This document shows positions 3,896 through 19,485 of a stretch of DNA of 64,000 nucleotides, piece after piece. The stretch lies in assembly GCA_963780265.1 (NCBI GenBank), contig CAWABQ010000028.1, positions 135,491-199,490 of the forward strand, written 5' to 3'. A program made the position numbers and the translations under genes. Position 1 is the first letter of the stretch. The number at the start of each line of letters is the position of its first letter. Source of the stretch: Candidatus Bathyarchaeota archaeon. GTDB lineage: Archaea; Thermoproteota; Bathyarchaeia; 40CM-2-53-6. Below the pieces are notes generated by a model that did no database searches, had not been told where the DNA came from, and was given only the letters and a program-made list of their open reading frames with translations.

Positions 3896-3952
3896 TTTGC
3901 CAGTAGCAATAAATGATAGGCGACGCCAATTTCCTCGTCAGGAAGAGAGAAC

Positions 3953-4255
3953 ATGCCTGACTTTGCTTTCGTCTATAACTTGAATTCTGTTTTGCTCTAT
4001 TTGCTATGTGGCGGCCTCTACTTGGTATTGCGGAAGCGCCGTCGCTTAGATGACTTCAACATACGAGATTTCACAACAATTGAAGGCTTGTTCTTTCTCA
4101 TTGTATTCGGGTTGATGCAGGCTTACGGTCTTTCGGAGGTTCAAAATTCGCTAGCAACCTACGGGTTGTCCCTTTTTAGGCTAAGAACATCTGCGGTATT
4201 CTTTTTGGGTATTCTTGGCTTAGGCCACTTGGGTAAAAGCTACAATCGTAGCTGA
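3953..4255 (+). CDS. hypothetical small membrane protein
   Basis: 100-aa ORF with about 3 hydrophobic helices (VLLYLLCGGLYLVL, FFLIVFGLMQAYGL, AVFFLGILGLGHLG). Confidence 0.5.
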   Translation: MPDFAFVYNLNSVLLYLLCGGLYLVLRKRRRLDDFNIRDFTTIEGLFFLIVFGLMQAYGLSEVQNSLATYGLSLFRLRTSAVFFLGILGLGHLGKSYNRS

Positions 4256-4280
4256 CTCGAAAGGCGCTTGGCGAATTTAG

Positions 4281-4465
4281 CGTAATCGAACCAAAAAACA
4301 CTAAACAAGAGCCTATCGGACAGAAGATACGCCTTTCAGGAGAGAGTTCCAATTCAGGAATCTTTGCTTAGAGAAACGAAGTAAGCTCTCTGGTGTTACC
4401 AGCATCTCACTGTACCAGTTACACCATCCGTTATTCTTGGTTGAGACACCAATATCAAGAGAGAA
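4281..4465 (+). repeat. decayed IS (transposase 3' half) fragment, copy A
   Basis: Starts CGTAATCGAACCAAAAAACA and is alignable with 16628..16800 (GAGCCTATCGGACAGAA, GAGAGAGTTCCAATTCAGGAATCTTTGCTTAGA, GAGACACCAATATCAAG). Confidence 0.5.
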
Positions 4466-4467
4466 AT

Positions 4468-6012: not shown

Positions 6013-6029
6013 AAGGAGTTCTCCCACGC

Positions 6030-6509
6030 TTGGTGACAAGTCATTCCAGCCAACTAACAGGAATCGCTGGAACGTACTATGTTGCTGCAGAGCTGAGTCG
6101 CAGGGGATATTTGGCATATCCCACTTCGAGAAATGTCGGAGAGGTTGACATTCTCACAGCGAATCCCCGCACTGGCAAGTCAGTAAGCATTCAAGTCAAG
6201 TCAACATTGCGAGCTGAGGACAAAACTGGACGCTTGTACTGGATTTTGAACGAGAGAGCGGAAGGACTGAAAGACAGAAACTTATTTTATGTTTTCTTGA
6301 GTCTACAACAACCATCCAATTTCTACGTCGTTCCAAGCCAATCAGTGGCTAATTTCGTCGCAAAATATCACCGCAAATGGTTGAGACGTAAAGGACGACA
6401 TGGTCAAAGACACAAGAACACTAACATGCGGATGTGGTGGGCAGATAAGAGATACATCAACAAATGGGAATTACTCGGACTCGAATCCACTCCTAGTATG
6501 CCACGCTAA
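6030..6509 (+). CDS. hypothetical protein, PD-(D/E)xK nuclease-like N-terminal fold
   Basis: GIAGTYYVAAELSRRGYLAY..GEVDILT..SIQVKS matches the G-x-x-G-E..D-x-D..Q-V-K pattern of restriction-endonuclease-like small proteins. It starts 18 nt after the DUF2130-like gene. Confidence 0.5.
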   Translation: MVTSHSSQLTGIAGTYYVAAELSRRGYLAYPTSRNVGEVDILTANPRTGKSVSIQVKSTLRAEDKTGRLYWILNERAEGLKDRNLFYVFLSLQQPSNFYVVPSQSVANFVAKYHRKWLRRKGRHGQRHKNTNMRMWWADKRYINKWELLGLESTPSMPR

Positions 6510-6597
6510 TGCAACAGGCAACATTGTAACAGAACTTCTGAAGCGCTGCAAATAAGGGAAAGTTGACCGAGCTGCAACCAAATCGAGCAGATAGACA

Positions 6598-7035
6598 CTA
6601 TGGTCGCAAAAGAGGAATCACCCATTGTAACATTAGAAAGAAGACTACAAGAATAATCAGGAATGCAACAAACAAGGCAATCTTAGAGTCTGCGTATCGT
6701 ATCAAGTTCCCCCACTTCTTATCGTAAGTATGCTTTTTGATGTGTTTTTCGAGACTGCGCATGGTAGGAGCGGGGGGTTTAGGCGCATTTATCGCCGATG
6801 TGACAATCTGCCCGCACCAGAAAAAACGCACGATGCAAATTACGATAGCACTTACGATTGCGCTAAGAATGAACGAAAAGCCAAAGCTCGTGTTTGGAGT
6901 ACTAGGCAGTCTGGACCATATATCAACAACAGTCAGAATCGAGAGGACTAAGGTCACGAAATAGATCTTATAGTCCTGCATCAGAGATTTGTAGTATTCC
7001 AGAAGGGCTATTCTCGCCTGAAGCTGATCAGACAT
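6598..7035 (-). CDS. hypothetical membrane protein (3-4 TM)
   Basis: 145-aa ORF with clear TM helices (IYFVTLVLSILTVV, FSFILSAIVSAIVICIV, ALFVAFLIILVVFFLML). Confidence 0.6.
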   Translation of the reverse strand: MSDQLQARIALLEYYKSLMQDYKIYFVTLVLSILTVVDIWSRLPSTPNTSFGFSFILSAIVSAIVICIVRFFWCGQIVTSAINAPKPPAPTMRSLEKHIKKHTYDKKWGNLIRYADSKIALFVAFLIILVVFFLMLQWVIPLLRP

Positions 7036-7195
7036 GGATATTTGCCCTCGCCTACAGGCTAGTGCGAATGAATTAAGATTTGGGCAGATGTGAATGACAA
7101 TCTGTCCACGCCTTCATTTAATGATCCGACCAACTTCATAACTATGACATAGGAATAGAAACCACCGACAGAACAAGAAAACAAAGAAAGGCAAA

Positions 7196-7308
7196 GCGTA
7201 ATCGAACCAAAAAACACTGAGCATAAGGCAAGACAACAGAAAATCCAGAACTCACACAGTAACCAAAAATCATCGAACAAGAGAGCCTATCGGATACAAA
7301 ATAGAGAG
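7196..7308 (+). repeat. two short tandem IS-derived fragments (copies B1, B2)
   Basis: GCGTAATCGAACCAAAAAACAC at 7196 and GTAACCAAAAATCATCGAACAAGAGAGCCTATCGGATACAAAATAG at 7258. Both have the same 5' boundary as copies A and E. Confidence 0.5.
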
Positions 7309-7310
7309 TA

Positions 7311-7472
7311 ATGCATGAGAGATTTGCGGTGCCAAACACAGTAGAATGCCCAAACTGTAAGCAATGGTATCAGTCAAATCAGTCGAACGTCTGTCCATTT
7401 TGCGGCTACAAGGCCGAAGCATATCAGCACGTGAAGGCTGAAGGTTACGGCAATATGGGCGCGAAAGTATAA
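7311..7472 (+). CDS. hypothetical zinc-ribbon mini-protein (53 aa)
   Basis: MHERFAVPNTVECPNCKQWYQSNQSNVCPFCGYKAEAYQHV with CxxC..CxxC. It is below the ORF-track size cut-off and was read directly from the sequence. Confidence 0.35.
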   Translation: MHERFAVPNTVECPNCKQWYQSNQSNVCPFCGYKAEAYQHVKAEGYGNMGAKV

Positions 7473-7516
7473 CCCATCGGTAACTCAGGTAATTTCCCAC
7501 ATCAACCGTAGATTCT

Positions 7517-7999
7517 CTATCCGAGCAATGACGCTAAAGTGAGCATTATTAGCCCTAGACCCAACGGCATCATTGCAATTAGTCTAAAAACATGAGAGTT
7601 CTTGAGCTTGGTATTGGTGAACGGACCTAGAACTGACAAATAGAGTGAATAGACGATCTCAACGGAAAGAACGAGCAAAGTGACTACTCCCAGAATAATG
7701 GTGAAATCGGGGAGGTTCTCCTTTGTGAAAAGCAAGATTACGCCCGCGACAATAATGGAGGAAACAATTGAACAAATCGTCACGCACTTTTCGATAACCT
7801 TCTCCAAGAGTGGAGGACCTTGATTCACCTCGATGCCTCGCCTCGCAAGTCCCAATAGCGATAGAAATGAAATGAACAAGCTTTTGCCTCCGCTGCTCCC
7901 ACCTTGATTGTGATGGAGCCATAACGGAAAACAAAGTGACAGCGCTATGAAGACAATACCAATAAAATAAAGGAGAAATTTAGCAAAAATCAGGTACAA
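7517..7999 (-). CDS. hypothetical membrane protein (4-5 TM)
   Basis: 160-aa ORF that is strongly hydrophobic throughout. Confidence 0.6.
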   Translation of the reverse strand: MYLIFAKFLLYFIGIVFIALSLCFPLWLHHNQGGSSGGKSLFISFLSLLGLARRGIEVNQGPPLLEKVIEKCVTICSIVSSIIVAGVILLFTKENLPDFTIILGVVTLLVLSVEIVYSLYLSVLGPFTNTKLKNSHVFRLIAMMPLGLGLIMLTLASLLG

Positions 8000-8114
8000 G
8001 CGTGTGTCATTCCCTATTTCTCGTAGTGTTTGCCTTCCAGATTATAAGACAATCATAATCAACGTAAACTGATTAGAACGCAAAGGTGATGCGATTTAAA
8101 CATCCGATAAGCAC

Positions 8115-8205
8115 ATAACCAAAAATCATTGGGCAAAGGCCTGAGCAATAGAAAATATGTCCTTGGCGAGAGATTTCAATTCCGGAGTATTTTGCTTAAA
8201 CGGCA
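8115..8205 (+). repeat. IS-derived fragment, copy C
   Basis: ATAACCAAAAATCATTGGGCAAAGG...GAGAGATTTCAATTCCGGAGTATTTTGCTTAAACGG matches 16628..16720. Confidence 0.5.
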
Positions 8206-8382
8206 TATCCGACACATCAGGTTACAGGGCGACTCAACAAAATTAGAAATTAGCGTTTCGATTCAACCAATACGTATGCTATGAACAAGTTAGTCGCGGC
8301 AAAACCAGCCGTGGAATCAGGGTTCGACTTCATTCTTCAGAAAGACGGTTTAGCGTATTTCAGAAAACGAAAATAGCTAAGG

Positions 8383-9075
8383 CTATTTTGTTCCGCGATG
8401 ACGCTTCCAAATCACGAAGATAACGACTCCGCTCACTACAACCAAGAACACAAAGAAGACAACGTAGTTGTTGAAGGTGAACGAGTTCGATGGCAGCAGT
8501 TGACTGGACGCATTAGGTAAGGACGCCAGAGATGAGGTATAGGAAGTAGGTTGGTATGTGGCGGAGGTGAACGTACGAAATACCTGGGACCAACAAGTAA
8601 ATGAAATATTCGTATCCGTTATTCGAGGATTCCAGAAAACAAAGTAGTAGTTGTCAGAATCTGGAACCGTCCAGTCCATTGAGTAAGAAGTAATCCCATT
8701 AGCTGCCACATGTGCACTGGGAGGTACAACTTTGCCGCAGACGCCGCCGCCCTTACTAGTCAACTCTACAGCTTGCAAGCGTTGGAGCTGGCTGCTACTC
8801 AACACCCAGAAGTTTATCGGTTGACTGGCTTGTACCGTACCGAATAATTCTGTTCCAACGTATCCCTCCTCTAGTTGAATATCCGAATAGTAACAGCCGC
8901 TCGAAGTGTAACCGGGCACGTCAAATTGCTGATTCTGGATGGTATTCGTTATCACGTAAGTTGTGACGTAAGATTGCCTAACGCTGGAACCTTGAGAGAT
9001 TGCTGGAATTGTAACTAAAGATAACAACAGGAGAAAACCAACTATGACTTTGCTGGGAATGCGCAAGCTAGACAT
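8383..9075 (-). CDS. secreted, C-terminally membrane-anchored protein
   Basis: N-terminal signal peptide (VIVGFLLLLSLVTIPAISQG), a beta-rich S/T/Y ectodomain, and a C-terminal TM plus basic tail (VVFFVFLVVVSGVVIFVIWKRHRGTK). Confidence 0.65.
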   Translation of the reverse strand: MSSLRIPSKVIVGFLLLLSLVTIPAISQGSSVRQSYVTTYVITNTIQNQQFDVPGYTSSGCYYSDIQLEEGYVGTELFGTVQASQPINFWVLSSSQLQRLQAVELTSKGGGVCGKVVPPSAHVAANGITSYSMDWTVPDSDNYYFVFWNPRITDTNISFTCWSQVFRTFTSATYQPTSYTSSLASLPNASSQLLPSNSFTFNNYVVFFVFLVVVSGVVIFVIWKRHRGTK

Positions 9076-9127
9076 GGACCGTCCCCAAGGGACGAGTTTA
9101 TCCGCTTGTTAGTAGAAAACACTTGTC

Positions 9128-9335
9128 ATGCCATAAGGACTACAATAACTGGCTGACTGTAATCCAAGAAGCGAGCCGGTTGAAAGTCAGAAGAAGTAGA
9201 TCACGGGCAAGTAATGAGAACGCTAGAGAAAGGAGACACGCCAATCTTAACGGGTATGGAGATTTTTCACAACTACGTACGACCACGCATGACACTAGGC
9301 GGACGAACCCCAGCCGAGGCGGCAGGCATCAAGGT
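9128..9335 (+). mobile_element. two abutting remnants of a DDE (rve, IS6-like) transposase C-terminus
   Basis: NNWLTVIQEASR (the end of one copy) is followed by MRTLEKGDTPILTGMEIFHNYVRPRMTLGGRTPAEAAGIKVEG. The x-HNY-x-RPH..L-x-G-x-TPAE signature marks rve-domain transposases. There is no intact catalytic domain. Confidence 0.55.
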
Positions 9336-9352
9336 TGAAGGGTCGAAAGAAT

Positions 9353-9784
9353 TCAAAGCAGTTTCAGAAAGAGATACCCGGAATACACGATTCGTAGAAA
9401 TAGTAATGCTATCGGAATACTCATTATGACCTCGGCGAGAGGGCCAAGAAATGAAAGACTGGATACGAAAAGGGCGAAAGCAACAAACAAAGTGGCACTC
9501 GCAACATAGTATGTTGTCTCAGAAAGCAAATATTCCACTAGGAGAGTTCCTTCTCGCGCAATTTCGGAACTAACGAAGAATAGAACCGTTGAGAACGTCA
9601 ATGCAAAAATGATTGAAGAAACACTTGGCAAGTTGCTTTGGAAGAACCCTATAATAAACGCAAGACTAGCAAAGGCAAAACCAGAAAGAGCCAGTGAATT
9701 ACTACATAAGGTGCTCAGATATTTCTCCGACATCTTTTCCTTCATTTTGCGCTGAAAGAAAGGTTTCATAACCAAATAGGCCAA
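9353..9784 (-). CDS. hypothetical membrane protein (4 TM)
   Basis: 143-aa hydrophobic ORF (LALSGFAFASLAFIIGFF, IIFALTFSTVLFFV, ATLFVAFALFVSSL, IMSIPIALLFL). Confidence 0.55.
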   Translation of the reverse strand: MAYLVMKPFFQRKMKEKMSEKYLSTLCSNSLALSGFAFASLAFIIGFFQSNLPSVSSIIFALTFSTVLFFVSSEIAREGTLLVEYLLSETTYYVASATLFVAFALFVSSLSFLGPLAEVIMSIPIALLFLRIVYSGYLFLKLL

Positions 9785-9905
9785 GCTTTTTGTCGCCCTT
9801 GTCAGATTTAAGACCTGTTAGGAAGGCGAAGGGATACACTTGCCCCAAGTGCAGGGTCCGAGTCTATGCGGGTGAGCAGCATGTTTGTGCTTGAGGTGAT
9901 GCTCA

Positions 9906-10028
9906 ATGTCTGAGAATAAGGAAGAGAAAAAGGAAACGAAGCGAATAAAAATACAAGAATCCAAACAGGATCGCTGTGAAAAATGTGGGGAACTGATGTT
10001 CAGTGGCGAGGAACACGCATGTGGTTAA
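9906..10028 (+). CDS. hypothetical mini zinc-ribbon protein (40 aa)
   Basis: MSENKEEKKETKRIKIQESKQDRCEKCGELMFSGEEHACG. It is the only one of three tandem C-x-K-C..GE-x-H/S-x-C units with an ATG. Confidence 0.3.
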   Translation: MSENKEEKKETKRIKIQESKQDRCEKCGELMFSGEEHACG

Positions 10029-10342
10029 GACTTGAAGGAAATAGCTATTGACCGACTACACACGTTTCGATGGTGCAAAGCAACGGTACTGCGCCAAATG
10101 CAAAGCCTATCACTACAGCGGCGAAAGTTGCCCTAACTCGTAAATACCAACCGGTCACCATTCGGTTGATTAGTAGGTTTCTGCTCATTCTCAACCTGAG
10201 CGGTGCAATTGACTGAAGCAAAGCGTGAGGTTAAGATCGGCAATCTGACCTTCCACGACTTTAGGCATCCGAAACCAAGCGCAACTTTTGCGACTGTAGA
10301 GAGAATGGTTCTGTGCACCGTAAAGGGGTTTGAGGGTCAAAA

Positions 10343-10675
10343 ATGACCAACGCCAACCGCGAAGAAGCGCTAAATATTCTTAAGAGCATGGGGGAATGGG
10401 AACATGTCGTCCGATTGTTGACCGACTTGCGAGTAGGCGGTACACAACCAAAGATTGACTATGAGTTCGGTCATGATCTGTATGATATTGGAAGCGAAAT
10501 CGATAGTTATGGCATTCTTACAGTGCGCTTTTTCGTGAAATCGGAAGTGGCATTGCTGAGAGTGAATGATCAGTTTGTTGATCTAGATGTTGAGGAGATC
10601 TGGAATCAAATCACGAATATCCCAAAGTGGTTAAATTTAGTCCATATTGTGGGAGAAATTAGTTCTGTTTCTTAG
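10343..10675 (+). CDS. hypothetical protein
   Basis: 110-aa acidic ORF with an ATG start and no recognisable motif. It lies upstream of hsdR. Confidence 0.45.
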   Translation: MTNANREEALNILKSMGEWEHVVRLLTDLRVGGTQPKIDYEFGHDLYDIGSEIDSYGILTVRFFVKSEVALLRVNDQFVDLDVEEIWNQITNIPKWLNLVHIVGEISSVS

Positions 10676-10752
10676 ATGCGTTCTGTATTGGCGTTAACCA
10701 CCTGTTCTCGCCCTCACTGTGATAGCTTCAACTTCGAACGAATTCTAGGAAA

Positions 10753-10785
10753 GAGAACCAAAAAACATCGGACAAAAACCGATGG
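10753..10785 (+). repeat. short IS-derived fragment, copy F
   Basis: GAGAACCAAAAAACATCGGACAAAAACCGATGG shares the AACCAAAAAACATCGGA 5' block with copy E. Confidence 0.4.
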
Positions 10786-10899
10786 CTCTTCTTGATGAGG
10801 AAGAACATCGACATTACTGCCTCAAAGACGATCAAGCCTGGCTTGGCAAAGACCTATCTTGAATACACGCCCGTACTGTAATCTCAAGCTGGAAGCTGT

Positions 10900-13713
10900 A
10901 TGGCCAGACGCTCGTCCGAATGGCGTACACGCAGAGAAAAAATCGATGTCTTGCTAAAGCGGTCTGGCTGGGACGTGGATGACAGAACTAAAGTTTACCA
11001 AGAAGTAGACACCAAGCAATCTGATTTCAAAGCTGGAAAATACAAGACAGTAACAGAAACGCTCAAGACACCAGAGGAGAAAGCATACGCTGATTATCTT
11101 CTCCTTGACGCTCATGGACTTCCATTGGCAGTAATAGAAGCTAAACGAACCGACAAGGAATACTTGTCAGGTGAGAAGCAGGCTGAAGGTTACGCCGATG
11201 ACATAAAGAAGCAGACTGGAAAAGACATTTTCATTTTTCTCACAAACGGCTATGAGATATGGTTCTGGAACAGACCGTTCGAGGCGCCGCGAGCAGCCAG
11301 CGGTTTCCATGACAGAAATTCCCTTGAACGTTTGCGTTTCCAAAATGAGAACAAGAAGGATTTCGCTGAGGTTCCCATAAAGCGAGAGATCATTGATAGG
11401 CCGTACCAGATTGAATCGGTTAAACGAATTCTTGAAGGAATCGATAAGGGAAAACGAAAGTTTCTTATCGTGCAGGCTACCGGCAGCGGAAAAACTCGCG
11501 TCGCTATGGCTTTGATTGATGTGTTGCTACAAGCGAATAGGGCTCAAAGAATTCTGTTTCTCGCTGACAGAAAGGAACTCAGAGACCAAGCGTACGGAGA
11601 CAACGGTTTCAAAGCTTTCTTCCCTCAGGAATCTAAAGTCAAAGTGTTCTCGGGGCAAGTTGACAAAACACCACGTCTTTACGCTTCAACCATCCAGACG
11701 TTCATGGAGTGTTATCAGGAGTTTTCTCCTGGTGACTTCGACGTAATCATCTCAGATGAGGCTCATCGCTCTATCTACAACAAATGGAAGGAAGTATTCA
11801 CTTACTTTGATGCAATCGAGATTGGGCTAACTGCCACGCCTTCCGATCTCATAGAACGTGATACTTTCCGATTTTTCAATTGCGAGCAGAACACTCCGAC
11901 CTATCTCTACGGCTACGAAGAAGCAGTCAAAGACCACGTCCTGTGCGATTATAAAGTGTTCAAAGCACAAACTCATTTTCAGATAGAGGGCATTCAACCA
12001 TCCGATGTTCCAGACTCAATCAAGAAGAAACTGCTTGAAGAACAAGGAGTCGTGGAGGAAGAAATTAATTTCGAAGGGACCGACATAGAGAAGAAGGTTG
12101 TCGTAATAGGAACTAACGAAGCAATCGCAAAGGAATTTATGGACGACTGCTTAACCGACGCAGCTGGACTACCTGCCAAGACAATTATCTTCGCCGTCTC
12201 GCAGAAACATGCGACCCGACTCTGGGAGGCATTTGAAAAGCTCTATCCGCAATACAAAGGACAACTCGCGAGGAGAATTGTGTCAGAGGACATGAGGGCA
12301 GATGAACTTCTGAAACAATTCAAGACTGACAGTTTTCCCAGAGTTGCCATCTCAGTTGGAATGCTCGATACTGGAGTGGACATACCTGAAGTATGCAACC
12401 TCGTTTTCGCAAAACCCGTATTTTCTAAGATACGATTTTGGCAGATGATTGGCAGAGGAACCCGCCATGAGAGCGTATGCAGGCATAAGGATTGGCTCCC
12501 TGAAGAGGGCAAAGAATACTTCCTGATTTTCGACTTCTGGAACAATTTTGAATGGCACAACATGCATCCAAAAGGCAAAGAATCGACTCCCAGCGACGCC
12601 ATTCCAACAAGGATTTTTCTTACTCGACTCCAACAGCTGAACTATTTGCTCGAAACTAAAGACACTCGCGCAGAACTCATCAAAGAAGAGATTACTCAAG
12701 ACATCAATTCACTGCCTCAAGATTCAATCTCCATAAGAGAACACTCACGCGATGTTGAGAAAGCACTCTCACCCAGCTTCTGGGAAAATGTGGGCCTCGA
12801 CCAAAACAAACTCCTAAAGACCAAGATTGCGCCATTAATGAGGTATCAAAAAGATGTCAACCTTAACGAGGCAGCATGGACACTAAAAATCGAACGATTG
12901 AACCTCGCGATTCTAAAGAACAATCAGGCTGAGAAAGAGAGAGTTAGAGACGAAATTGGCGAATGGCTCAACGCACTTCCCACAACGATTCAAGAAGTCA
13001 AGGCAAAACAAGAATTACTAGACAGAGTAGTGCGGCCCAACTTCTGGGCAACGGTGACCTTTGAGGATGCTCAAATGCTGCTTAAGGAATTCACTCCACT
13101 AATGAAATACAAAGAGTCAGAACCAAGACCCACAATAATCCTCGACATTGACGATATGCTTCAGAAAAGAGAGTTTATTGAATATGGACCCATCCCCACG
13201 GAAGAATATGTGAGCACTTACGTGGAGAAAGTCGAGAAGAGAATCAAGGAACTCGCTGAACAGCATCCCACTATCGAGAAGATCAAGCGCGACCAAGTCC
13301 TAAATGAAGAGGACCTTAGAAATTTGGAGAAGACACTGAACAGTCCGGAACTTTACATCACAGAGGAAACACTCCAGAAAGCGTACAGACAACACAAGGG
13401 CACAATGGTCCAATTCATCAAGAAGGTTCTAGGACTCTACGAGTTTCCTGACGCAAACAAGAGAATTGCTGATTCATTCAAAACCTTCGTCATTGAAAAG
13501 AACTATCTGAACTCAGACCAAGTTAATTTTCTGCGCACAATACAAACTGTATTCAGCAAGAAACATCACATAGAATATGACGATCTTTTCGATGCACCCT
13601 TTACAAACTTTGGAGTGAACTTTCCAGTCCCAGCTTTTGGGGAAGACGATTTGCGAGACGTAATTAACCTGTGTAACAGTCTAGAGGTGGAAGTATTCCA
13701 TGCTATCGCCTGA
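10900..13713 (+). CDS. hsdR: type I restriction enzyme, R subunit (HsdR, EcoEI-like C-terminus)
   Basis: N-terminal PD-(D/E)xK (YADYLLLDAHGLPLAVIEAKR), SF2 helicase motifs (IVQATGSGKT, ISDEAHRS, QMIGRGTR) and an EcoEI_R_C-like tail (NYLNSDQVNFLRTI). Its stop overlaps the hsdM start. Confidence 0.95.
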   Translation: MARRSSEWRTRREKIDVLLKRSGWDVDDRTKVYQEVDTKQSDFKAGKYKTVTETLKTPEEKAYADYLLLDAHGLPLAVIEAKRTDKEYLSGEKQAEGYADDIKKQTGKDIFIFLTNGYEIWFWNRPFEAPRAASGFHDRNSLERLRFQNENKKDFAEVPIKREIIDRPYQIESVKRILEGIDKGKRKFLIVQATGSGKTRVAMALIDVLLQANRAQRILFLADRKELRDQAYGDNGFKAFFPQESKVKVFSGQVDKTPRLYASTIQTFMECYQEFSPGDFDVIISDEAHRSIYNKWKEVFTYFDAIEIGLTATPSDLIERDTFRFFNCEQNTPTYLYGYEEAVKDHVLCDYKVFKAQTHFQIEGIQPSDVPDSIKKKLLEEQGVVEEEINFEGTDIEKKVVVIGTNEAIAKEFMDDCLTDAAGLPAKTIIFAVSQKHATRLWEAFEKLYPQYKGQLARRIVSEDMRADELLKQFKTDSFPRVAISVGMLDTGVDIPEVCNLVFAKPVFSKIRFWQMIGRGTRHESVCRHKDWLPEEGKEYFLIFDFWNNFEWHNMHPKGKESTPSDAIPTRIFLTRLQQLNYLLETKDTRAELIKEEITQDINSLPQDSISIREHSRDVEKALSPSFWENVGLDQNKLLKTKIAPLMRYQKDVNLNEAAWTLKIERLNLAILKNNQAEKERVRDEIGEWLNALPTTIQEVKAKQELLDRVVRPNFWATVTFEDAQMLLKEFTPLMKYKESEPRPTIILDIDDMLQKREFIEYGPIPTEEYVSTYVEKVEKRIKELAEQHPTIEKIKRDQVLNEEDLRNLEKTLNSPELYITEETLQKAYRQHKGTMVQFIKKVLGLYEFPDANKRIADSFKTFVIEKNYLNSDQVNFLRTIQTVFSKKHHIEYDDLFDAPFTNFGVNFPVPAFGEDDLRDVINLCNSLEVEVFHAIA

Positions 13714-15181
13714 ACTGAAATCGCAGGTCAACAAACTCTGGGACAGGTTCTGGTCAGGAGGGATAGCCAACCCGCTTACTGCGATCGAACAGATGTCGTA
13801 CCTAATTTTCATGAAGCGCTTGGAAGACCTTGACAGTATTCACGCCAAGAGAGCTGCCATTAGAAAAGAGAAATTCAAGTCGATTTTTCAGGGACATGAG
13901 GACTGCCGTTGGTCACAGTGGAAGAACCTGAGTGCAGAGGCGATGCTAAAACACGTCTTGGGAGTCGTTTTTCCATTCATAAAGAATTTGACGAATGGCG
14001 ATGATGTCCTCTATTCGCAATATATGAAGGACGCAATGTTCGTCATCCCTAAGGCCTCTCTGTTGCAGGAGGCGGTCGCGATTATCGATGAGATGAACAT
14101 CACCGAAAGGAATCAAGACACACAAGGCGACATCTATGAGCACCTCTTGGCCGAACTCAAGACCTCGGGAAAGAATGGGCAATTCAGGACGCCACGTCAT
14201 ATCATCCGTATGATGGTCGAGCTTGTTGACCCTGACATAGGCCAGACGGTCTGTGACCCAGCGTGCGGCACGGCGGGGTTCCTTATTGCAGCATACGAGC
14301 ACATCTTGAGACGGTATACGAGCGATGAGATTGTCAGTGTGGACGAGGACGGTTCCGTGCATAACCTTTACGGAGACAAGATCATCGAGAAAGCTCACTG
14401 GGATCTTCTGAAACGCGAAACGTTCTTCGGATTCGATTTCGACACCACGATGATCCGCATTGGCCTTATGAACATGATATTGCACGGAATCGAGAGGCCC
14501 AACATTCGCTACTCGGACACGCTCTCGAAACGATTTGAACAGAAACCAATCTATGACATGGTATTTGCGAATCCTCCGTTTGCGGGTTCAATCGATAAGA
14601 GCGACATCAATGACACATTCAAACTGGACACGGCGAAGACAGAGCTTCTCTTTCTCGAACTGTTCTACAACCTCCTCAGAATGGGAGGTCGGGCTGCGGT
14701 TATTGTTCCCAATGGAGTTCTCTTCGGCTCCTCAAATGCTCACATTAAGGCGAGGCAATTACTTCTTGAGCAGTCAGAGCTTCAAGCCGTTGTTTCGATG
14801 CCCTCCGGAATCTTCCAACCCTATGCAGGCGTGAGCACAGCAGTCCTCGTTTTCGTAAAAGGAGGCAAGACGGAGAATGTCTGGTTCTATGAAATGAAAG
14901 CGGATGGCTATAGTTTGGACCAGAAACGTGATTTCATTGACGGCAAAGGCGACATACCTGACATCATCAAAGAGTTCAAAAGGCGTGCCAAATCGGCTCA
15001 GAGTATTCTTGTGCCCTTTTCAGAGATAAAGAAGAGTGACTACAATCTCTCCATATCACGCTACAAGAAGGTTGAGCATGAGGAAGTAGCGTACGAGGAC
15101 CCGGAAGTTTTGATTGAGAAAGTTTCGCAATTAGAGGAAGAGATTGCGAAGGATTTGCAGGAATTGAAAGCGATGATTTAG
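13700..15181 (+). CDS. hsdM: type I restriction-modification N6-adenine DNA methyltransferase (HsdM)
   Basis: HsdM N-terminal domain (LWDRFWSGGI), SAM motif (VCDPACGTAGFL) and catalytic FANPPFAGS. Confidence 0.95.
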   Translation: MLSPELKSQVNKLWDRFWSGGIANPLTAIEQMSYLIFMKRLEDLDSIHAKRAAIRKEKFKSIFQGHEDCRWSQWKNLSAEAMLKHVLGVVFPFIKNLTNGDDVLYSQYMKDAMFVIPKASLLQEAVAIIDEMNITERNQDTQGDIYEHLLAELKTSGKNGQFRTPRHIIRMMVELVDPDIGQTVCDPACGTAGFLIAAYEHILRRYTSDEIVSVDEDGSVHNLYGDKIIEKAHWDLLKRETFFGFDFDTTMIRIGLMNMILHGIERPNIRYSDTLSKRFEQKPIYDMVFANPPFAGSIDKSDINDTFKLDTAKTELLFLELFYNLLRMGGRAAVIVPNGVLFGSSNAHIKARQLLLEQSELQAVVSMPSGIFQPYAGVSTAVLVFVKGGKTENVWFYEMKADGYSLDQKRDFIDGKGDIPDIIKEFKRRAKSAQSILVPFSEIKKSDYNLSISRYKKVEHEEVAYEDPEVLIEKVSQLEEEIAKDLQELKAMI

Positions 15182-15182
15182 C

Positions 15183-16385
15183 ATGGATCTTCCGAACGGA
15201 TGGAGTGCAGTCAGACTGGGCGAAGTCTGCAGGGTCATGGATGTTGACCACAAGATGCCGAAGTCGCAGCCGAATGGAATACCGTTCATATCTGCTAAGG
15301 ACTTGGTGGGGAGCTCGTCCATTGACTTTAGCGAAACGAAATTCATTTCCGAAGAGGATTATCGTCGGCAGGCGAAAAAATGCGCTCCGAAAAAGAACGA
15401 TGTATTGTTCACTCGAATCGGAACGATAGGTGTCGCACGGTTAGTCAAGGACGACCGAAGATTCGGGATTTCCTATAGTCTATGTGTTGTCAGACCCTCA
15501 GAAAAAGTCGTGCCAGAGTATTTGGAGGCGCTGATGAACTCGGAAGTCGTCAAGAAGCAGGCGACAATGGGAACTCAAAGTATAGCCGTGCCCGATTTGG
15601 GCCTAAAACAGATAAGAGATTTCTTGATACAGCTTCCGCCTCTGAACGCTCAGAAAAGAATAACCAGCATTTATGAAAGAGCAACACGACTGAAGGACTT
15701 ACGCAGACAAGCAAACCAGCTTACCAGCAGAATCATCCAGTCAGTCTTTCTGAAGATGTTTGGAGATCCTGCAACGAATCCGAAGGACTGGCCAACTACA
15801 ACAATAGGAAATCATGCAAACATACGGTACGGAACTGGCAGCCCTCCTCGCTACGAAGAGAATGGAATACCGTTCGTTCGAGCTACAAATATCAAGATGG
15901 GCAGAATCGTCAGCCGTGAAATGAAATTCATTTCGGAAGAATCCACGAAGAGGATAGCGAAATGCAGGTTACAGAGCGGTAACCTCATTCTGGTGAGGAG
16001 CGGCGTAAATACGGGCGACTGTGCGTATGTGACAGACGATTACGACGGAGCGTATGCGGCTTACGATCTCATTCTAGATTTTGACAAGGACCTAAACAGC
16101 CGTTTTGTCTGGGCGATTCTGAACATGCCCCATGCAAGGAAAATCATGAAGTCGAGGAGCATCAGAGCGGCTCAACCTCATCTTAATGCTGGTCAGGTGT
16201 CCTCCATAGAAGTCCCGAAACCTCCAATTGAATTGCAAAGGAAGTTTGTGTCTTGGATAGAGAGAATCGATGGACTTGAGGCCAAACAAATGCGATCATC
16301 TCAAGAAATCAATCAACTCTTCAACTCTCTCATGCACAAAGCCTTCAGAGGAGAACTCAAGCGTGCGGAGACGAGAATTGCTTGA
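15183..16385 (+). CDS. hsdS: type I R-M specificity subunit (HsdS), two target-recognition domains
   Basis: Duplicated architecture with conserved spacers (LPPLNAQKRITSIYE..., VPKPPIELQRKFVSWIE...LMHKAFRGEL). It starts 2 nt after the hsdM stop. Confidence 0.9.
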   Translation: MDLPNGWSAVRLGEVCRVMDVDHKMPKSQPNGIPFISAKDLVGSSSIDFSETKFISEEDYRRQAKKCAPKKNDVLFTRIGTIGVARLVKDDRRFGISYSLCVVRPSEKVVPEYLEALMNSEVVKKQATMGTQSIAVPDLGLKQIRDFLIQLPPLNAQKRITSIYERATRLKDLRRQANQLTSRIIQSVFLKMFGDPATNPKDWPTTTIGNHANIRYGTGSPPRYEENGIPFVRATNIKMGRIVSREMKFISEESTKRIAKCRLQSGNLILVRSGVNTGDCAYVTDDYDGAYAAYDLILDFDKDLNSRFVWAILNMPHARKIMKSRSIRAAQPHLNAGQVSSIEVPKPPIELQRKFVSWIERIDGLEAKQMRSSQEINQLFNSLMHKAFRGELKRAETRIA

Positions 16386-16500
16386 TGTCGGTAGACGTGT
16401 GCTCGTTCAATTAGCCGAGCTAATCTAAATCACTTCGTTTTCTTGCGGCTTCATATCAACTTCTTTCGAAGTCTTGCTGCACTTAACAACCATAGGTACA

Positions 16501-16545
16501 GACGAACCAAAAAACACCTAACAAGAACCTATCAAACATAGAGCT
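16501..16545 (+). repeat. short IS-derived fragment, copy D
   Basis: GACGAACCAAAAAACACCTAACAAGAACCTATCAAACATAGAG. Confidence 0.4.
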
Positions 16546-16627
16546 ACTTGAATACTTGAATGGATAATGCAAACAAACAATCCACTCAGAACCGCAAGGT
16601 GTGCGACAACAATAGAACAAGACCTAA

Positions 16628-16936
16628 CGTAACCAAAAAACATCGGAAAAGAGAGCCTATGAGACAGAAAAATACGACTTTCGAGAGAGATTTCAATTCC
16701 AGAGTATTTTGCCTAGACGGTCTAACTGACATGTAAATCGCGAGCGACTAATGAGAACGCTAGAGAAGGGAGACACACCAATCTTAACGGGTATGCAAAT
16801 CTTCCACAACTACATTCGACCACACCAAGCATTGAACGGAAAGACACCCGCCGAACTAGCGGGAATAGAAATCCAAGGCGACAACAAGTGGCTTACCTTG
16901 ATTCAAAATGCGAGCCGTAAAACTGCAAAGTCTTAA
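16628..16936 (+). mobile_element. longest remnant of the IS (rve/IS6-like) transposase 3' half, copy E
   Basis: CGTAACCAAAAAACATCGG...ERDFNSRVF (decayed), then the intact-looking tail MRTLEKGDTPILTGMQIFHNYIRPHQALNGKTPAELAGIEIQGDNKWLTLIQNASR. No N-terminal or catalytic part is present. Confidence 0.6.
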
Positions 16937-16965
16937 GAACCTTTGCGACTGTACGGGGAGTCCCA

Positions 16966-17736
16966 TTGCGACAGCGAACCCGAACTTTAGTCATCATTCT
17001 CCTAGTTTCCTCAGCCTTGACGATAGAGCTAATTCCAAACGCAAGTAGCCAGCAATTTACCACATCTACCTCATTTCTTACAAGTTCGTTGACCCAAACT
17101 GTGACTCAGTATGTTCCAACCTCCACGATTGTAACCCAAGCCAGCATGACTAGCGCAACGACCAGCTTCCCACTTCAATCTGCACAAGGCGCATGCCTCT
17201 ACAATATCGCTTACTTCACGCTTACATTCAACACTACGGAGCCGTTGCAGATCAGTTACGACTTGCATCCTCTTAGCCTTCCATATTCTTCATACATAGA
17301 CATGTATATCGGGGGGTCCTACTTCCCAGGAAGTGGACCATTTACCCCATTTACCTTAAACGGGTCGCATTGTGTTCTAAATGGTTATTACCCTGCATTA
17401 TTCGGAAATTATTTCGGCCTTGTAGGGACTGGAACCGTGAATACGACCTCGGCGCTATCAAGTGGAACTTATGCAATACTTGTGGTAGCCTATGCGCCCT
17501 ATGCACCCTCAACGGTTACGTTGGCAATAACATTTCCAGCAGCAACCTACGCTACTACATCGTTCTTTTCCATGTCCATGATACTAACGACCAGTGGAAT
17601 GACAACTCTTACAACCTCAACCATCTTAGAAGTACCATTCATCCAAACCTATGGCTATTTGATAGTTGCTGCTGTAATTGCGGTGTTACTCGTTGGTCTA
17701 CTGTTGTTCACTCGACGAATGAGGCAGCTAAAGTGA
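16966..17736 (+). CDS. secreted S/T-rich protein with C-terminal membrane anchor
   Basis: Signal peptide (LVIILLVSSALTIELIPNASS), a T/S-rich ectodomain, and a C-terminal TM plus basic tail (LIVAAVIAVLLVGLLLFTRRMRQLK). Confidence 0.6.
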   Translation: MRQRTRTLVIILLVSSALTIELIPNASSQQFTTSTSFLTSSLTQTVTQYVPTSTIVTQASMTSATTSFPLQSAQGACLYNIAYFTLTFNTTEPLQISYDLHPLSLPYSSYIDMYIGGSYFPGSGPFTPFTLNGSHCVLNGYYPALFGNYFGLVGTGTVNTTSALSSGTYAILVVAYAPYAPSTVTLAITFPAATYATTSFFSMSMILTTSGMTTLTTSTILEVPFIQTYGYLIVAAVIAVLLVGLLLFTRRMRQLK

Positions 17737-17884
17737 AAGAATCCAAGCTTACCTAGGTGACGGTTTTTTACAGCCCCTTTCAAGACAGGGGAAAACGGTT
17801 AGGTGACGACATCTTGACGTTACCTCACTAAATCCGCTTTATTACGATCAGTTACGCAGAGTAACAATAGCCCATCCATTGAAC

Positions 17885-18235
17885 TCACACACCGTAAGTC
17901 GGATAGACTTGCTTGACTTCACCTTTCGAATCTACCCCTAGTAATACTAAGCCTAGTTTGTCGAAGACTTTAGAGTCAATGTGTTTTGCAGCGCGTAAGG
18001 TCGTAACCATCGCTACTTGGTCGTACCCGTAGGCTAATGCTTCGGATAGCTGTCCTATCCCGCGTGTAATATCGTCCCGAGGTGTTTTCAACTCCAAAGC
18101 CATCCTCCAGCCTTTCCCTAGAACCTCACCATCTATCGCCACATTACCCAATCGTATCGAACGCATCTGAACCTGCAATCCTTTGCTTCGGAAATGCTTT
18201 GAAACAGCCCACTTGAGCCAGCGGAGATTTGTCAA
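17885..18235 (-). CDS. small PD-(D/E)xK-like protein translationally coupled to the integrase
   Basis: The 116-aa ORF start overlaps the integrase stop by 4 nt. NVAIDGEV..WRMALELKT resembles the D..E-x-K core of Hjc/YraN-like nucleases. Confidence 0.45.
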   Translation of the reverse strand: MTNLRWLKWAVSKHFRSKGLQVQMRSIRLGNVAIDGEVLGKGWRMALELKTPRDDITRGIGQLSEALAYGYDQVAMVTTLRAAKHIDSKVFDKLGLVLLGVDSKGEVKQVYPTYGV

Positions 18236-19182
18236 TTGCGTTCTCCTTCCAGCAGGCGTAGGTTGACTGATTCATAGACGATTTTCATCTTGTCAACTCT
18301 GAAGTCAGAGTAGTGTCTAGCTAGAATTGACTTGGGAGCTCTGCCTTGAAATGCGTCAACATACCTATCTTGAACGCCAAGACTGCCCATCCTATCTGCG
18401 AACCAATCTCGCAAATCTTTAGGCTTAATCTTGAATCCACACTGTTTGCTAGCCTTCTCGAAGACATGACGCAAACCTTGAGGTAGCAGATTGAAGAGTT
18501 GCTCATTCCCTTGCCAAGTCTCTTTGGATGCTAAATGATTTTGTAGCAGTTGATCGCATTCGGGAGAGTAGAACGAGCACCAAGACTTCTTGGTTGAGCC
18601 TTCATGATTCTTGGGAATGATCGCTCTTCTGGATATGTCCAAGTCTTCGTAGCGTAACGATAGAATCTCCATCTCACGGAGACCGCTAGTTGCAAGCAAG
18701 AGGAACATGAGCTGGTGTACCGGTTTTGTAAGAGCATTATAAAAGAGCCTCATTTTCTCAGTGCTTGGAGCTTCTTTGGGAACGAAGGGCGCTCGTGGAT
18801 AACGAAAACTGTCGGTTATTGGTGAACCAAGAAAGCTTCTGTAGAAGCATCGAAATCCACGAATTATGTTAGCTCTACTGTTGGGTGGAGAATCGGAGTA
18901 GTTTTCAAGCATATAGTTTCGAAGATCATCTCTTGTAGCTTGTCTTAGATCCTTTGGAAACGATTTCGAGAAGCATCTCATTATTCCTTTGTAGCGCTCA
19001 ATGGTCTCTTTTGCAAGTTGCAGGTCCACTCTACAGAATTTGCTGAATTCGTCAAGAAGCTCAAGTGCGTTGACAGACTCGCCATAATTTGTAGTGTTTG
19101 CGAGAGGATTATTCGGGCTGTTTAGATGAATGTCGCCTAAAACAGAAGGTGGGTTACGGCCAACACACCAACCCGTTTCATT
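18232..19182 (-). CDS. tyrosine recombinase, C-terminal fragment Int(C) of the partitioned integrase
   Basis: Catalytic-domain motifs are present (LLATSGLREMEILSL, KDLRDWFADRM, ILARHYSDF). The frame stays open upstream of the GTG at 19029, through att and on to 19287, with no ATG/GTG/TTG. The gene therefore lacks its own N-terminus. Confidence 0.8.
   Translation of the reverse strand, partial: NETGWCVGRNPPSVLGDIHLNSPNNPLANTTNYGESVNALELLDEFSKFCRVDLQLAKETIERYKGIMRCFSKSFPKDLRQATRDDLRNYMLENYSDSPPNSRANIIRGFRCFYRSFLGSPITDSFRYPRAPFVPKEAPSTEKMRLFYNALTKPVHQLMFLLLATSGLREMEILSLRYEDLDISRRAIIPKNHEGSTKKSWCSFYSPECDQLLQNHLASKETWQGNEQLFNLLPQGLRHVFEKASKQCGFKIKPKDLRDWFADRMGSLGVQDRYVDAFQGRAPKSILARHYSDFRVDKMKIVYESVNLRLLEGERN
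19122..19182 (+). repeat. attR: second copy of the 61-bp repeat (displaced 3' end of RNase P RNA)
   Basis: 61/61 identity with 3440..3500. Confidence 0.9.
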
Positions 19183-19485
19183 TCTTGGAGAATTGGCTGA
19201 ATTAGAATTATTTTGCAGTGATTGTATTTCTGGTTGAGAACTTCTATTAACGGCGTTGACCGCGCCGGCTATGGGGCTTTCTTCACTTTATGAATCATAC
19301 ACCTTCTACGTGGAGGTAACCGGGTCAACCATCGCTAGCCCGGTTTTGTCGTTATTTTTTTTTCTAGCCGTTGGCCGCCAGGCGCTTATGTGCCCTTGTT
19401 ATGCGTGGCGGTAGGGAAATTTCTACTTTCATACCTTCCATTGGAATCTTTCCACATTTCGCTATATGCACCAGGGAAATATCTG

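Follow-up and report, generated by a model that had tools for sequence, protein, structure and literature searches.

In type I (SSV-type, or suicidal) integration, the attP site lies inside the integrase (int) open reading frame (ORF), while in type II (pNOB8-type) integration att is located outside the gene and int stays intact. In type I, an intact int is carried by the free episomal or viral form, and the full-length protein is expected to perform both integration and excision on the att core with no directionality factor. Fuselloviruses, to which the SSV elements belong, have the VP1/VP3 capsid proteins and a DnaA-like ATPase as their hallmarks. The chromosomal dif resolvase XerA is encoded by a single intact housekeeping gene and acts through the R-K-H-R-H-Y chemistry. 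To our knowledge, all documented cases of self-splitting integrases use tRNA genes, and most of them come from hyperthermophiles.

Int-pT26-2 and Int-pTN3 are suicidal integrase families of the Thermococcales and Archaeoglobales (Badel et al. 2020, PMC7253208; PMC8371274). All att sites reported for these families are in tRNA genes, and the term 'RNase P' is absent from both papers. A model in which integrations follow one another at a single att has been put forward for them (PMC7253208; PMC8371274); Badel et al. 2020 (PMC7253208) state that a site with multiple or tandem insertions was never seen. As targets, the survey of Krupovic et al. 2019 (PMC6563490) gives tRNA genes, intergenic regions and protein-coding genes at their 3' ends, and its main text makes no mention of 'RNase P'. 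Literature searches on integration into RNase P RNA or rnpB gave incidental mentions and reference-list matches, and no precedent.

The locus described here is located in a 64,000-nucleotide stretch of a Bathyarchaeia contig, the whole of which is referred to as the window. The host is probably mesophilic. There is little doubt in our view that the window carries an integrated mobile element whose tyrosine integrase has its own attP inside the coding sequence, which makes the element type I, SSV-type or 'suicidal'.

Element Boundaries and Integration Target

The element has a size of 15,682 bp (one att plus the unique DNA) and is bounded by a perfect 61-bp direct repeat, the identity of which was re-checked (Table 1). 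The GC content of the 15.7-kb island is about 45% (0.44-0.47) versus about 52% (0.51-0.53) in the flanks, and synteny with the contigs L013 and L002 was found on both sides of the element. A circular form of the element presumably exists, and the crossover point is likely to fall within att. An imperfect inverted repeat in att, GGTGGGTT-ACGGCC-AACACACC, was judged by eye as a candidate recombinase core; it agrees at 7 of 8 positions here and at 6 of 8 in L013 and L075, which is about the chance level, and it is not claimed.

Table 1. Coordinates of the integrated element, its attachment sites, the integrase gene halves and neighbouring genes in the window.
Feature	Position	Strand	Remarks
Integrated element including both att copies	3440..19182	.	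Direct repeat, GC profile, flank synteny
attL, 61-bp repeat copy	3440..3500	.	
attR, 61-bp repeat copy	19122..19182	.	Stand-alone duplicate: last 47 nt of RNase P RNA + 14 nt
Archaeal RNase P RNA gene, integration target	3193..3486	+	Rfam RF00373
Int(N), 67 codons from ATG 3701	3501..3701	-	RHH domain and start of linker; in frame into attL
Int(C)	18232..19121	-	Remaining linker, SAM-like core-binding domain, catalytic domain
Fossil tail of older Int(N)'	19183..19257	-	Just outside attR, same frame, 75 nt; alignment A3
orf65, putative	3698..3895	-	Directly upstream of int; stop overlaps int ATG (ATGA)
DUF2130 protein	5173..6012	+	Pfam PF09903, E = 6e-27
Type I restriction-modification operon	10900..16385	+	hsdR 10900-13713, hsdM 13700-15181, hsdS 15183-16385
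orf116	17885..18235	-	Start overlaps int stop codon

The left repeat copy overlaps an archaeal RNase P RNA gene, which was matched by the Rfam model at 168.6 bits (gathering score 84) over model positions 1-288. The att consists of the final 47 nt of this gene and 14 nt downstream. The 3' strands of both P1 and P2 fall within it, as does the conserved ACAGAAGG..UUAC stretch, which we take to be the CR-V / P4 3' strand. The gene is complete, because the element brings an identical 3' end. The geometry is that of the tRNA-targeting type I elements: integration makes use of the 3' end of an RNA gene, int runs antisense to this gene, and an intact gene is restored. The same target is common to this locus and at least three other contigs (L013, L075 and L076).

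The attB of the characterised type I members lies in a tRNA gene. ARAGORN found no tRNA in the whole window and Rfam found none near att; therefore, a tRNA target was rejected for this locus. An interrupted host protein gene was also considered and rejected, as the reconstructed empty site has no convincing start-bearing ORF and the RNase P match accounts for the sequence. Another contig, L063, has no element at the 3' end of its RNase P gene, but was rejected as an empty-site control. With many differences in its att region and a C-terminal remnant of int on the gene's 5' side, it is not a clean attB.

Partition of the Integrase Gene

Both halves of int read the repeat on the minus strand in the same frame, as NETGWCVGRNPPSVLGDIHL, on the left from ATG 3701 and on the right in the frame ending at 18232. 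Joining 3701->3440 to 19121->18232 by in-silico excision gives an uninterrupted ORF of 383 aa, in which the att-encoded peptide makes up residues 68-87. By chance, the 66-codon junction region would be open in the matching frame in about 0.7% of random sequences of the same composition. Both halves are without stops or frameshifts in the window. Thus, attP is inside the int ORF as codons 68-87, and int(N) and int(C) are found at opposite ends of the element, each adjoining att, as in type I; the type II (pNOB8-type) arrangement with att outside an intact int is not found.

The first-pass annotation had proposed that integration partitions the gene and that recombination would fuse its halves into a 383-aa ORF. 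The fusion was reproduced in silico, and the repeats, the shared frame, the ORF and the split and unsplit relatives all agree with the partition. The att frame of Int(N) from ATG 3701 had been read correctly, but 67 codons precede the repeat rather than the 66 counted before. It had also been noticed that the recombinase frame stays open upstream of its first possible start, and indeed the 86 codons from the in-frame TAA 19290 to GTG 19029 contain no ATG, GTG or TTG. As had been concluded, the integrated copy is unable to make full-length integrase, because int is cut in two and the first start codon available to Int(C) is GTG 19029.

GTG 19029 is residue 119 of the rejoined protein and gives a 265-aa ORF with the whole catalytic domain. 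The SAM-like domain begins at 106-110; therefore, this ORF cuts into it, and the first helix of the core-binding domain is removed. An N-truncated product of 265 aa may be formed from this start. At the left end, the integrated Int(N) ORF passes att and extends to 189 aa, ending at 3132, antisense through the RNase P RNA gene. This ORF is regarded as a read-through, because it is not conserved in L013.

The rejoined protein starts with a ribbon-helix-helix (RHH) domain at residues 4-39 (Pfam CcdA, 25.4 bits versus the cut-off of 22.4). The SAM-like core-binding domain covers residues from about 106 to 190, with the Pfam Phage_int_SAM_4 match at 109-190. It is followed by the catalytic domain (about 206-373) with R236, K265, R325, R348 and Y358, all five invariant in alignment A1. 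Pfam Phage_integr_3 (PF16795, archaeal phage integrase) matches residues 206-361 at 36.8 bits (cut-off 27), and the domain belongs to the tyrosine recombinases of the archaeal phage integrase type. The catalytic motifs reported for the right-end ORF in the first-pass annotation are borne out by the same residues and match. It had further been suggested that an orphan N-terminal part of 118 aa, together with a 265-aa ORF aligning over its full length to stand-alone recombinases, would speak against a fused gene; this part contains the RHH domain, and homologues cover 96-99% of the protein, in favour of the partition. In the AlphaFold model, residues 5-36 adopt an RHH fold, the pLDDT of the linker at 36-103 is below 50, and residues 106-373 make up two confidently modelled domains. 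Accordingly modelled, the linker of about 65 residues is predicted to be disordered, and its middle (68-87) is the translation of att. The rejoined protein is presumably catalytically active. Judging from the N-terminus of Int-SSV2 (PMC8371274), the RHH domain might serve to form multimers or to bind DNA.

The active-site block IKPKDLRDWFADRMGSLGVQDRYVDAFQGRAPKSILARHY can be aligned to that of SSV1 Int (chains 4dks and 3vcf) and has the SSV1-like QGR..HY signature. Over the protein as a whole, the similarity to these SSV1 chains is weak (phmmer E = 0.13-0.4; Foldseek E = 0.02-0.15). XerA (5hxy and 4a8e) is the best match in both sequence and fold, over residues from about 110 to 352 (Foldseek E about 1e-10), and yet the protein is not a XerA-type chromosome-dimer resolvase. 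The earlier label 'SSV-type' stands for the mechanistic class and the catalytic signature, but not for the overall sequence and fold, which are nearer to archaeal XerA.

Split and Unsplit Relatives

At least 14 unsplit homologues of 342-383 aa, with the 96-99% coverage of the fused protein given above, have the same architecture of RHH domain, linker, SAM-like domain and catalytic domain. In one of them, P0043, the linker DNA corresponds to the 3' half of a tRNA-Val(TAC) gene in antisense, the CCA end included; attP thus lies within int there, in the position that it has at the present locus. Split relatives were found at at least nine loci (L007, L014, L017, L038, L040, L052, L053, L061 and L062). 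In these, an Int(N) fragment with the RHH domain runs on into a tRNA gene in antisense, and is tied to a distant Int(C) by a repeat of 32-55 nt.

In a second genome (L013), the same split occurs at the same locus, with a 59-nt repeat and an RNase P match of 178 bits. The same split and RNase P target are also present in the metagenome contigs L075 and L076. The int modules are 83-93% identical between genomes (DNA 83-88%), whereas the host flanks are only about 68-70% identical and the cargo differs, which points to recent horizontal spread. The six closest proteins show 61-93% identity; their coverage of the fused protein is 80% at most, the RHH N-terminus is missing from them, and the longest, P0004, begins inside the att peptide.

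Intact int genes exist for the tRNA-targeting relatives, whereas the RNase P clade is represented by Int(C)-type genes and a junction at the end of contig L075. There, an Int(N) tail is joined to att and Int(C), and the junction is partial evidence of an unsplit gene because it lies at the contig end. No unsplit copy with a complete ORF was found in the RNase-P-targeting clade: the metagenome scan gave three close loci, none with a complete unsplit gene, and the search of viral contigs with the fused protein gave no relatives. Frameshifts or stops are present in the Int(C) of L013, L076 and L077; therefore, some copies are decaying, or these are sequencing errors. Nothing was detected by Rfam and ARAGORN on L001-L004, as expected, because these contigs hold just the Int(C) end or just the tRNA half.

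The site has evidently been used before. The range 18232-19290 given for the partitioned integrase in the first-pass annotation holds, with the in-frame stop as its upper limit, but positions 19183-19257 within it are the tail of an older Int(N)' rather than anonymous host DNA. Compared with five Int(N) tails, this stretch gave local-alignment z-scores of 4-8, the observed score being reached by 0-11 of 2000 shuffles, versus z of about 0 for the adjacent control stretch 19258-19332. The frame is open beyond att because the fossil tail lies there in the same frame. As the tail is located outside attR, the site was used at least once before the present insertion. In the relative L007, an intact hybrid int is followed by a second Int(N).

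Cargo and Other Element Genes

The cargo includes the gene of a DUF2130 protein and a type I restriction-modification (R-M) operon, which was recognised by PHROGs and by Pfam matches to ResIII, HSDR_N and EcoEI_R_C, to N6_Mtase and HsdM_N, and to Methylase_S. The gene orf116 is kept with the int module in L013, L075, L076 and L077 at 65-83% aa identity. No family match was obtained for orf65. Screening of 18 element ORFs of at least 50 aa, the ten longest against PHROGs and Pfam and the other eight against Pfam only, revealed no recognisable replication or virion genes. Having no virion-protein match (PHROGs, Pfam) and a weak likeness to SSV1 Int, the element is not placed in the Fuselloviridae.

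Proposed Mechanism and Alternative Explanations

With a type I integrase, the free circle would make one 383-aa integrase, and attP would be the RNase P RNA gene's last 47 nt and 14 nt downstream, read antisense. Recombination of attP with the chromosomal site would insert the element, whose att copy would regenerate an intact RNase P RNA gene. The same event would cut int, leaving Int(N) beside the RNase P RNA gene and Int(C) without a start codon at the far end. For excision, integrase would then have to come in trans, or int would have to be restored through another insertion at the same att.

The partition could be real and the present copy nonetheless a trapped relic, immobile and persisting as a chromosomal R-M island. 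We regard this as possible, though doubtful. It agrees with the loss of full-length integrase from the integrated copy, with the damaged Int(C) of L013, L076 and L077, with the failure to find an episomal or viral-contig copy, and with the lack of recognisable replication or virion genes among the 18 ORFs screened. However, the 61-bp repeats are still identical and the int halves at this locus are free of stops and frameshifts, and the similarity of the int modules between hosts, well above that of the flanks (about 68%) and combined with different cargo, speaks for recent mobility of the lineage. This explanation is also compatible with type I integration and bears only on the present state of the copy.

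That the two ORFs are independent genes is highly improbable. The left one would be a small RHH regulator or antitoxin and the right one a 265-aa type II (pNOB8-like) integrase, with att outside both and a coincidentally shared frame. CcdA, the family matched by the N-terminal domain, is indeed an antitoxin family that is usually free-standing, and the ORF from GTG 19029 does hold the entire catalytic domain. Nevertheless, the fusion of RHH and integrase in one ORF is kept in the unsplit homologues, the GTG start sacrifices the first core-binding helix, the chance of an open, frame-matched junction is below one in a hundred, and the arrangement recurs in L013, again at RNase P, and in the split relatives, where tRNA genes are the sites. 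An assembly or binning artefact joining unrelated contigs at a shared RNase P fragment is hardly credible: the source is probably a metagenome-assembled genome and repeats are classic misjoin points, but the layout and the syntenic host genes on both sides reappear in the independent assembly L013 and the metagenome contigs L075 and L076, and the two int halves complement each other exactly.

Within the type I explanation, it seems rather likely that the target was moved by exchanging an att 'cassette' in the disordered linker between the RHH domain and the recombinase core; the gene for RNase P RNA would then be the first structured-RNA target of this class other than tRNA. It is to the same degree likely that this lineage and its tRNA-targeting relatives show repeated insertions at a single att, which rebuild a hybrid int (intact in L007) or leave fossils (here), that is, the predicted escape route from 'suicide'.

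These data would extend the class of self-splitting integrases to the Bathyarchaeia of soil and sediment. The att segment within the protein appears to be replaceable by a part of another, very unlike RNA gene that is essential, and this part takes in a highly conserved stretch of RNase P RNA. Since att falls in a linker predicted to be disordered, a concrete and testable account of target change without loss of function is obtained. The fossil Int(N) tail at this locus and the intact hybrid gene of the relative may serve as natural examples of successive insertion at one att, which was proposed as a way for elements to escape 'suicide' or to recombine. For annotation, RNase P RNA genes belong among the sites to be scanned for integrated elements in archaea, and integrase ORFs of about 265-300 aa beside RNase P RNA sites should be read as gene halves.

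Comparison with Known Systems

The element resembles SSV1 and SSV2 in having attP in the int ORF, which is split into int(N) and int(C) at the element ends, and in the orientation of int, antisense to a target RNA gene whose 3' part is used and which is regenerated. With SSV1, it further shares Pfam Phage_integr_3 and the active-site block K/Y-x-x-R ... QGR-P ... HY. The Int(N)-specific part, which we take to be 66 residues long in SSV1, has about 66-67 residues here. Unlike SSV1 and SSV2, which target a tRNA gene in hyperthermophilic Sulfolobales, the present element uses the RNase P RNA gene of a probably mesophilic member of the Bathyarchaeia, has an RHH N-terminus, lacks fusellovirus genes and includes a type I R-M system in its cargo. 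SSV1 Int also differs in that a SAM-like core-binding domain is detectable here and that the present protein is closer to XerA in overall sequence and fold.

Archaeal XerA (Pyrococcus abyssi 4a8e, Thermoplasma 5hxy) has the same two-domain architecture of core-binding and catalytic domains. In contrast to XerA, K322-x-x-R325 and R348 are present here, with K and R in place of the two histidines, along with an extra RHH domain, an att-encoded linker, a split gene and low-GC island edges.

As far as the bacterial integrases of tRNA and tmRNA (ssrA) genes (Williams 2002) are summarised in PMC8371274, they likewise use the 3' end of a conserved and essential structured-RNA gene as attB, which is restored by the element, but their att is outside int and the gene is not partitioned. 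Compared by description, NitEve-E3 of the thaumarchaeon Nitrososphaera evergladensis (Krupovic et al. 2019, PMC6563490) is also a cryptic integrated element of a mesophilic archaeon from the same broad lineage, with an SSV1-like integrase split on integration and no viral hallmark genes.

Int-pT26-2 and Int-pTN3 follow the same suicidal logic, with att translated in a variable region of the protein (PMC7253208; PMC8371274). In these families, as here, closely related integrases differ in their target, and the histories of Int(N) and Int(C) can differ (PMC7253208; PMC8371274). Unlike them, the integrases considered here have left a fossil Int(N)' outside attR at the present locus and, in L007, a hybrid int together with a second Int(N).

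Reconstruction of the split integrase gene

The element is delimited by a perfect 61-bp direct repeat (identity verified), and the GC profile gives 0.44-0.47 inside the repeat pair versus 0.51-0.53 outside it. On the minus strand, the Int(N) frame beginning at ATG 3701 enters the left repeat (attL) and translates it as NETGWCVGRNPPSVLGDIHL. The recombinase frame of Int(C), with its stop at 18232, translates the right repeat (attR) as the same peptide, which agrees with the common att frame proposed in the first-pass annotation. The recombinase indeed has no start upstream of GTG 19029, as the 86 codons between the in-frame TAA 19290 and this GTG contain no ATG, GTG or TTG. The left ORF runs from ATG 3701 into att as claimed; the codons ahead of the repeat, counted earlier as 66, number 67. 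In-silico removal of one repeat copy and of everything outside the element joined 3701->3440 to 19121->18232, and the halves fused, as predicted, into an uninterrupted 383-aa ORF with the att peptide at residues 68-87. The chance of an open and frame-matched 66-codon junction region was about 0.7% in random sequences of the same base composition.

After integration, the ORF of Int(N) comprises 189 aa and ends at 3132, not at att. In the second genome with the same locus (L013), the frame beyond att closes after about 45 codons, and the long antisense read-through across RNase P is therefore probably a matter of chance. Transcription of Int(N) could give an antisense RNA against RNase P RNA.

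Features of the window, domains of the rejoined protein and integrase regions of related contigs
Feature	Position	Remarks
Int(N) frame, open for 189 codons	3132-3701 (-)	antisense to the entire RNase P RNA gene
RNase P RNA gene, archaeal, complete	3193-3486 (+)	Rfam, 168.6 bits vs gathering score 84; model positions 1-288
attL	3440-3500	final 47 nt of the gene for RNase P RNA and 14 nt downstream
Motif GAACCAAAAAACA, 7 copies	4288, 7204, 7260, 8116, 10755, 16504, 16630	
DUF2130 protein	5173-6012	cargo
ORF	6030-6509	one PHROG family without assigned function
Repeated block	8152-8214 and 16669-16731	81% identical
Repeated block	9196-9317 and 16733-16854	78% identical
hsdR	10900-13713	type I restriction-modification operon
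hsdM	13700-15181	type I restriction-modification operon
hsdS	15183-16385	type I restriction-modification operon
orf116	17885-18235 (-)	116 codons; TTG start overlapping int stop codon
attR	19122-19182	
Fossil Int(N) tail	19183-19257	75 nt directly outside attR
tRNA	44968-45080 (-)	Rfam, 113 nt, 46.3 bits; no ARAGORN call
TPP riboswitch aptamer	52287-52397 (-)	RF00059, 70.2 bits vs gathering score 54.3
CcdA (ribbon-helix-helix family)	residues 4-39	Pfam, 25.4 bits, cut-off 22.4
Phage_int_SAM_4	residues 109-190	Pfam, E = 6.9e-06, 26.8 bits; marginally below cut-off 27
Phage_integr_3 (Archaeal phage integrase)	residues 206-361	Pfam, 36.8 bits, cut-off 27
Phage_integrase	residues 221-359	Pfam, E = 3.2e-07
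Unsplit integrase with tRNA-Val half	L003 10001-11074; L004 255-1328	
RNase P RNA gene, complete	within L063 7999-8612	186 bits; 3' end unoccupied

The closest solved structure by sequence is Pyrococcus XerA (4a8e). Its alignment begins at residue 110, and the 265-aa ORF, in which GTG 19029 corresponds to residue 119, would consequently lack the beginning of the core-binding domain. The AlphaFold model (18 input sequences) predicts a strand and two helices, i.e., a ribbon-helix-helix (RHH) fold, at residues 5-36 with moderate confidence, pLDDT below 50 for residues 36-103, and two confident domains within residues 106-373. Foldseek, too, ranked XerA first (E about 1e-10) and gave the catalytic domain of SSV1 integrase only E = 0.02-0.15, despite a TM-score (target-normalised) around 0.6. 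The active-site block carries the SSV1 signature (IKPKDLRDWFADRMGSLGVQDRYVDAFQGRAPKSILARHY, aligned to SSV1 Int), with an arginine at the position where XerA has the second histidine. R236, K265, R325, R348 and Y358 are invariant in the family alignment.

Homologues and the partition of the gene

Searching with the fused protein returned two size classes of homologues. The shorter proteins (about 270-300 aa) cover only its C-terminal 70-75%. The longer class has at least 14 members (342-383 aa, 96-99% coverage) with the architecture of the fused protein (RHH, linker, SAM-like and catalytic domains); within this class, a peptide of the linker is conserved, WWA(E/G)PDLNRRPLARKA. The reverse complement of the linker DNA of one such protein, P0043, is GGGGCTTTACGAGCCAAAGGTCGCCGGTTCAAGTCCGGTCCGGCCCACCA, the 3' half of tRNA-Val(TAC) including the CCA end. 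The long-class genes thus bear attP inside the ORF, antisense to an RNA gene, exactly where the repeat lies in the gene of the window. Two unsplit genes of this kind (L003, L004) have genes of normal cellular function as neighbours (ABC transporter, thermosome, Sua5), and neither a tRNA gene nor a second att copy was found within the 16 kb retrieved.

The locus scan used one genome per species and comprised 70 loci, mostly from Bathyarchaeia or Bathyarchaeota MAGs. Nine of these loci have, several kb downstream of an Int(C), a fragment of RHH Int(N) that runs straight into an antisense tRNA gene; an exact 32-55-nt repeat, the antisense tRNA 3' half, ties Int(N) to the Int(C) end. The targets are tRNA Val-GAC (L007, L040, L052, L062), Val-CAC (L038), Val-TAC (L061), Pro-CGG (L014), Ser-GCT (L017) and His-GTG (L053). 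The repeats of L023 and L029 are tRNA-like, with no ARAGORN call. From the unsplit attP-bearing genes and the nine split loci it follows that the family belongs to the type I (suicidal) integrases as defined by She et al. and Badel et al. (PMC7253208, PMC8371274). The homologues settle the partition question: the integrase of the window is partitioned by integration, as first suggested, and its rejoined N-terminus is comparable to integrase N-domains, the long homologues having the same RHH and linker.

The RNase P RNA gene as the target

In the Rfam model alignment, the att segment takes in P2 and P1 (the 3' strand of each) as well as the conserved ACAGAAGG..UUAC stretch, which corresponds to CR-V, the 3' strand of P4. 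The int gene is antisense to the gene for RNase P RNA, and the complete RNA gene stands at the Int(N) end, a geometry identical to that of the tRNA-targeting relatives.

The RNase P target is directly observed in several independent assemblies. L013, a Bathyarchaeota MAG, has a 9.5-kb element flanked by 59-nt repeats. Its Int(N) side carries an RNase P RNA (178 bits), Int(N) reads att in the matching frame, and the host genes on either side are syntenic with the window. In the metagenome contigs L075 and L076, the terminal features are Int(N), att and RNase P. The Int(C) end is present in L001, L002 and L077, and P0004, encoded in L001, has its N-terminus inside the att peptide. A more distant Bathyarchaeia contig (L063) has a C-terminal integrase remnant (residues 319-378 matched) about 140 bp from the RNase P 5' end, in an orientation inconsistent with the att geometry of the window element.

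The circular form would express the 383-aa protein, which would catalyse recombination between attP and the 3' end of RNase P. To leave, the integrated copy would depend on integrase supplied in trans or on a hybrid gene being rebuilt. The linker that contains the att peptide is predicted to be disordered, so that an exchange of the att cassette would be tolerated, in line with published work noting free variation of att translations between close relatives. The RHH domain may act in multimerisation or DNA binding, by analogy with the Int-SSV2 N-terminus, for which these roles were reported (PMC8371274).

Earlier insertions at the same att

The 75 nt directly outside attR align to the Int(N) tails of the window, L013, L075 and L076 with local-alignment z of 4-8, the observed score being reached in 0-11 of 2000 shuffles; the next 75 nt, used as a control, gave z of about 0. 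Judging by this alignment, the segment is a fossil Int(N) tail of an older element that formerly occupied att, the remainder being lost. The frame is open past att because this tail adjoins attR.

Some relatives preserve such remains in a less decayed state. L007, a 2.0-Mb Bathyarchaeota contig, has a first Int(N) that continues in frame as Int(C) (intact 380-codon frame, 9920-11059). A second Int(N) (18584-18835), 79% identical to the first, lies about 7.5-8.5 kb downstream and runs into tRNA-Val(GAC). The arrangement resembles the outcome of two insertions, one after the other, at a single att, with a hybrid int rebuilt; the 10 kb upstream contained no third copy of att. L052, L061 and L062 have the same layout in damaged form.

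Cargo and spread of the element

Apart from the tabulated cargo, the screened ORFs of the element matched no family of the libraries used. The 18 ORFs screened included no recognisable virion or replication gene, and the element is therefore regarded as a cryptic integrated element and not as a demonstrable provirus. Intergenic blocks are repeated within it (4288-16854) and may serve several genes as common promoters or operators. The left host flank contains a rhomboid protease gene. Farther right, the window has a TPP riboswitch aptamer, in an apparently archaeal genome, and a tRNA that is probably an intron-containing archaeal gene.

Between the RNase-P-targeted genomes, DNA identity is 83-88% for the int module and about 68-70% for host flank genes, and the cargo is unrelated except for orf116. 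Recent horizontal spread of the int module is a better fit to this pattern than vertical inheritance. In L013, L075, L076 and L077, the int module is likewise accompanied by orf116, whose product (65-83% aa identity) had no Pfam or PHROG matches. On L076 (1-2742), the element appears to be only about 3.3 kb long, with int, orf116 and about 1.4 kb more, which suggests such a size for a minimal element of the RNase-P-targeting clade. The mobile core may thus be very small, and the restriction-modification system of the window may be added cargo.

Comparison with known systems

That integration partitions the gene is textbook knowledge for SSV-type integrases. One split integrase, NitEve-E3, has been described in Thaumarchaeota (PMC6563490); partition as such is already known, and the integrase of the window adds a further case. 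The term RNase P is absent from PMC7253208, PMC8371274 and the surveys of Thaumarchaeota elements (PMC6563490), Bathyarchaeia viruses and Asgard elements, and no relevant paper on integration at RNase P RNA or rnpB was found in literature covered without most subscription journals. The RNase P RNA gene as a target, for which missing precedent is not proof, thus goes beyond the searchable literature, as do RHH as an integrase N-terminal domain and the traces left at one att by successive insertions. According to Badel et al. 2020 (PMC7253208), tandem or multiple insertions at one site have never been observed for suicidal integrases, and such insertions were proposed as the route to hybrid integrases; here, in contrast, the window carries a fossil tail and L007 an apparent hybrid int.
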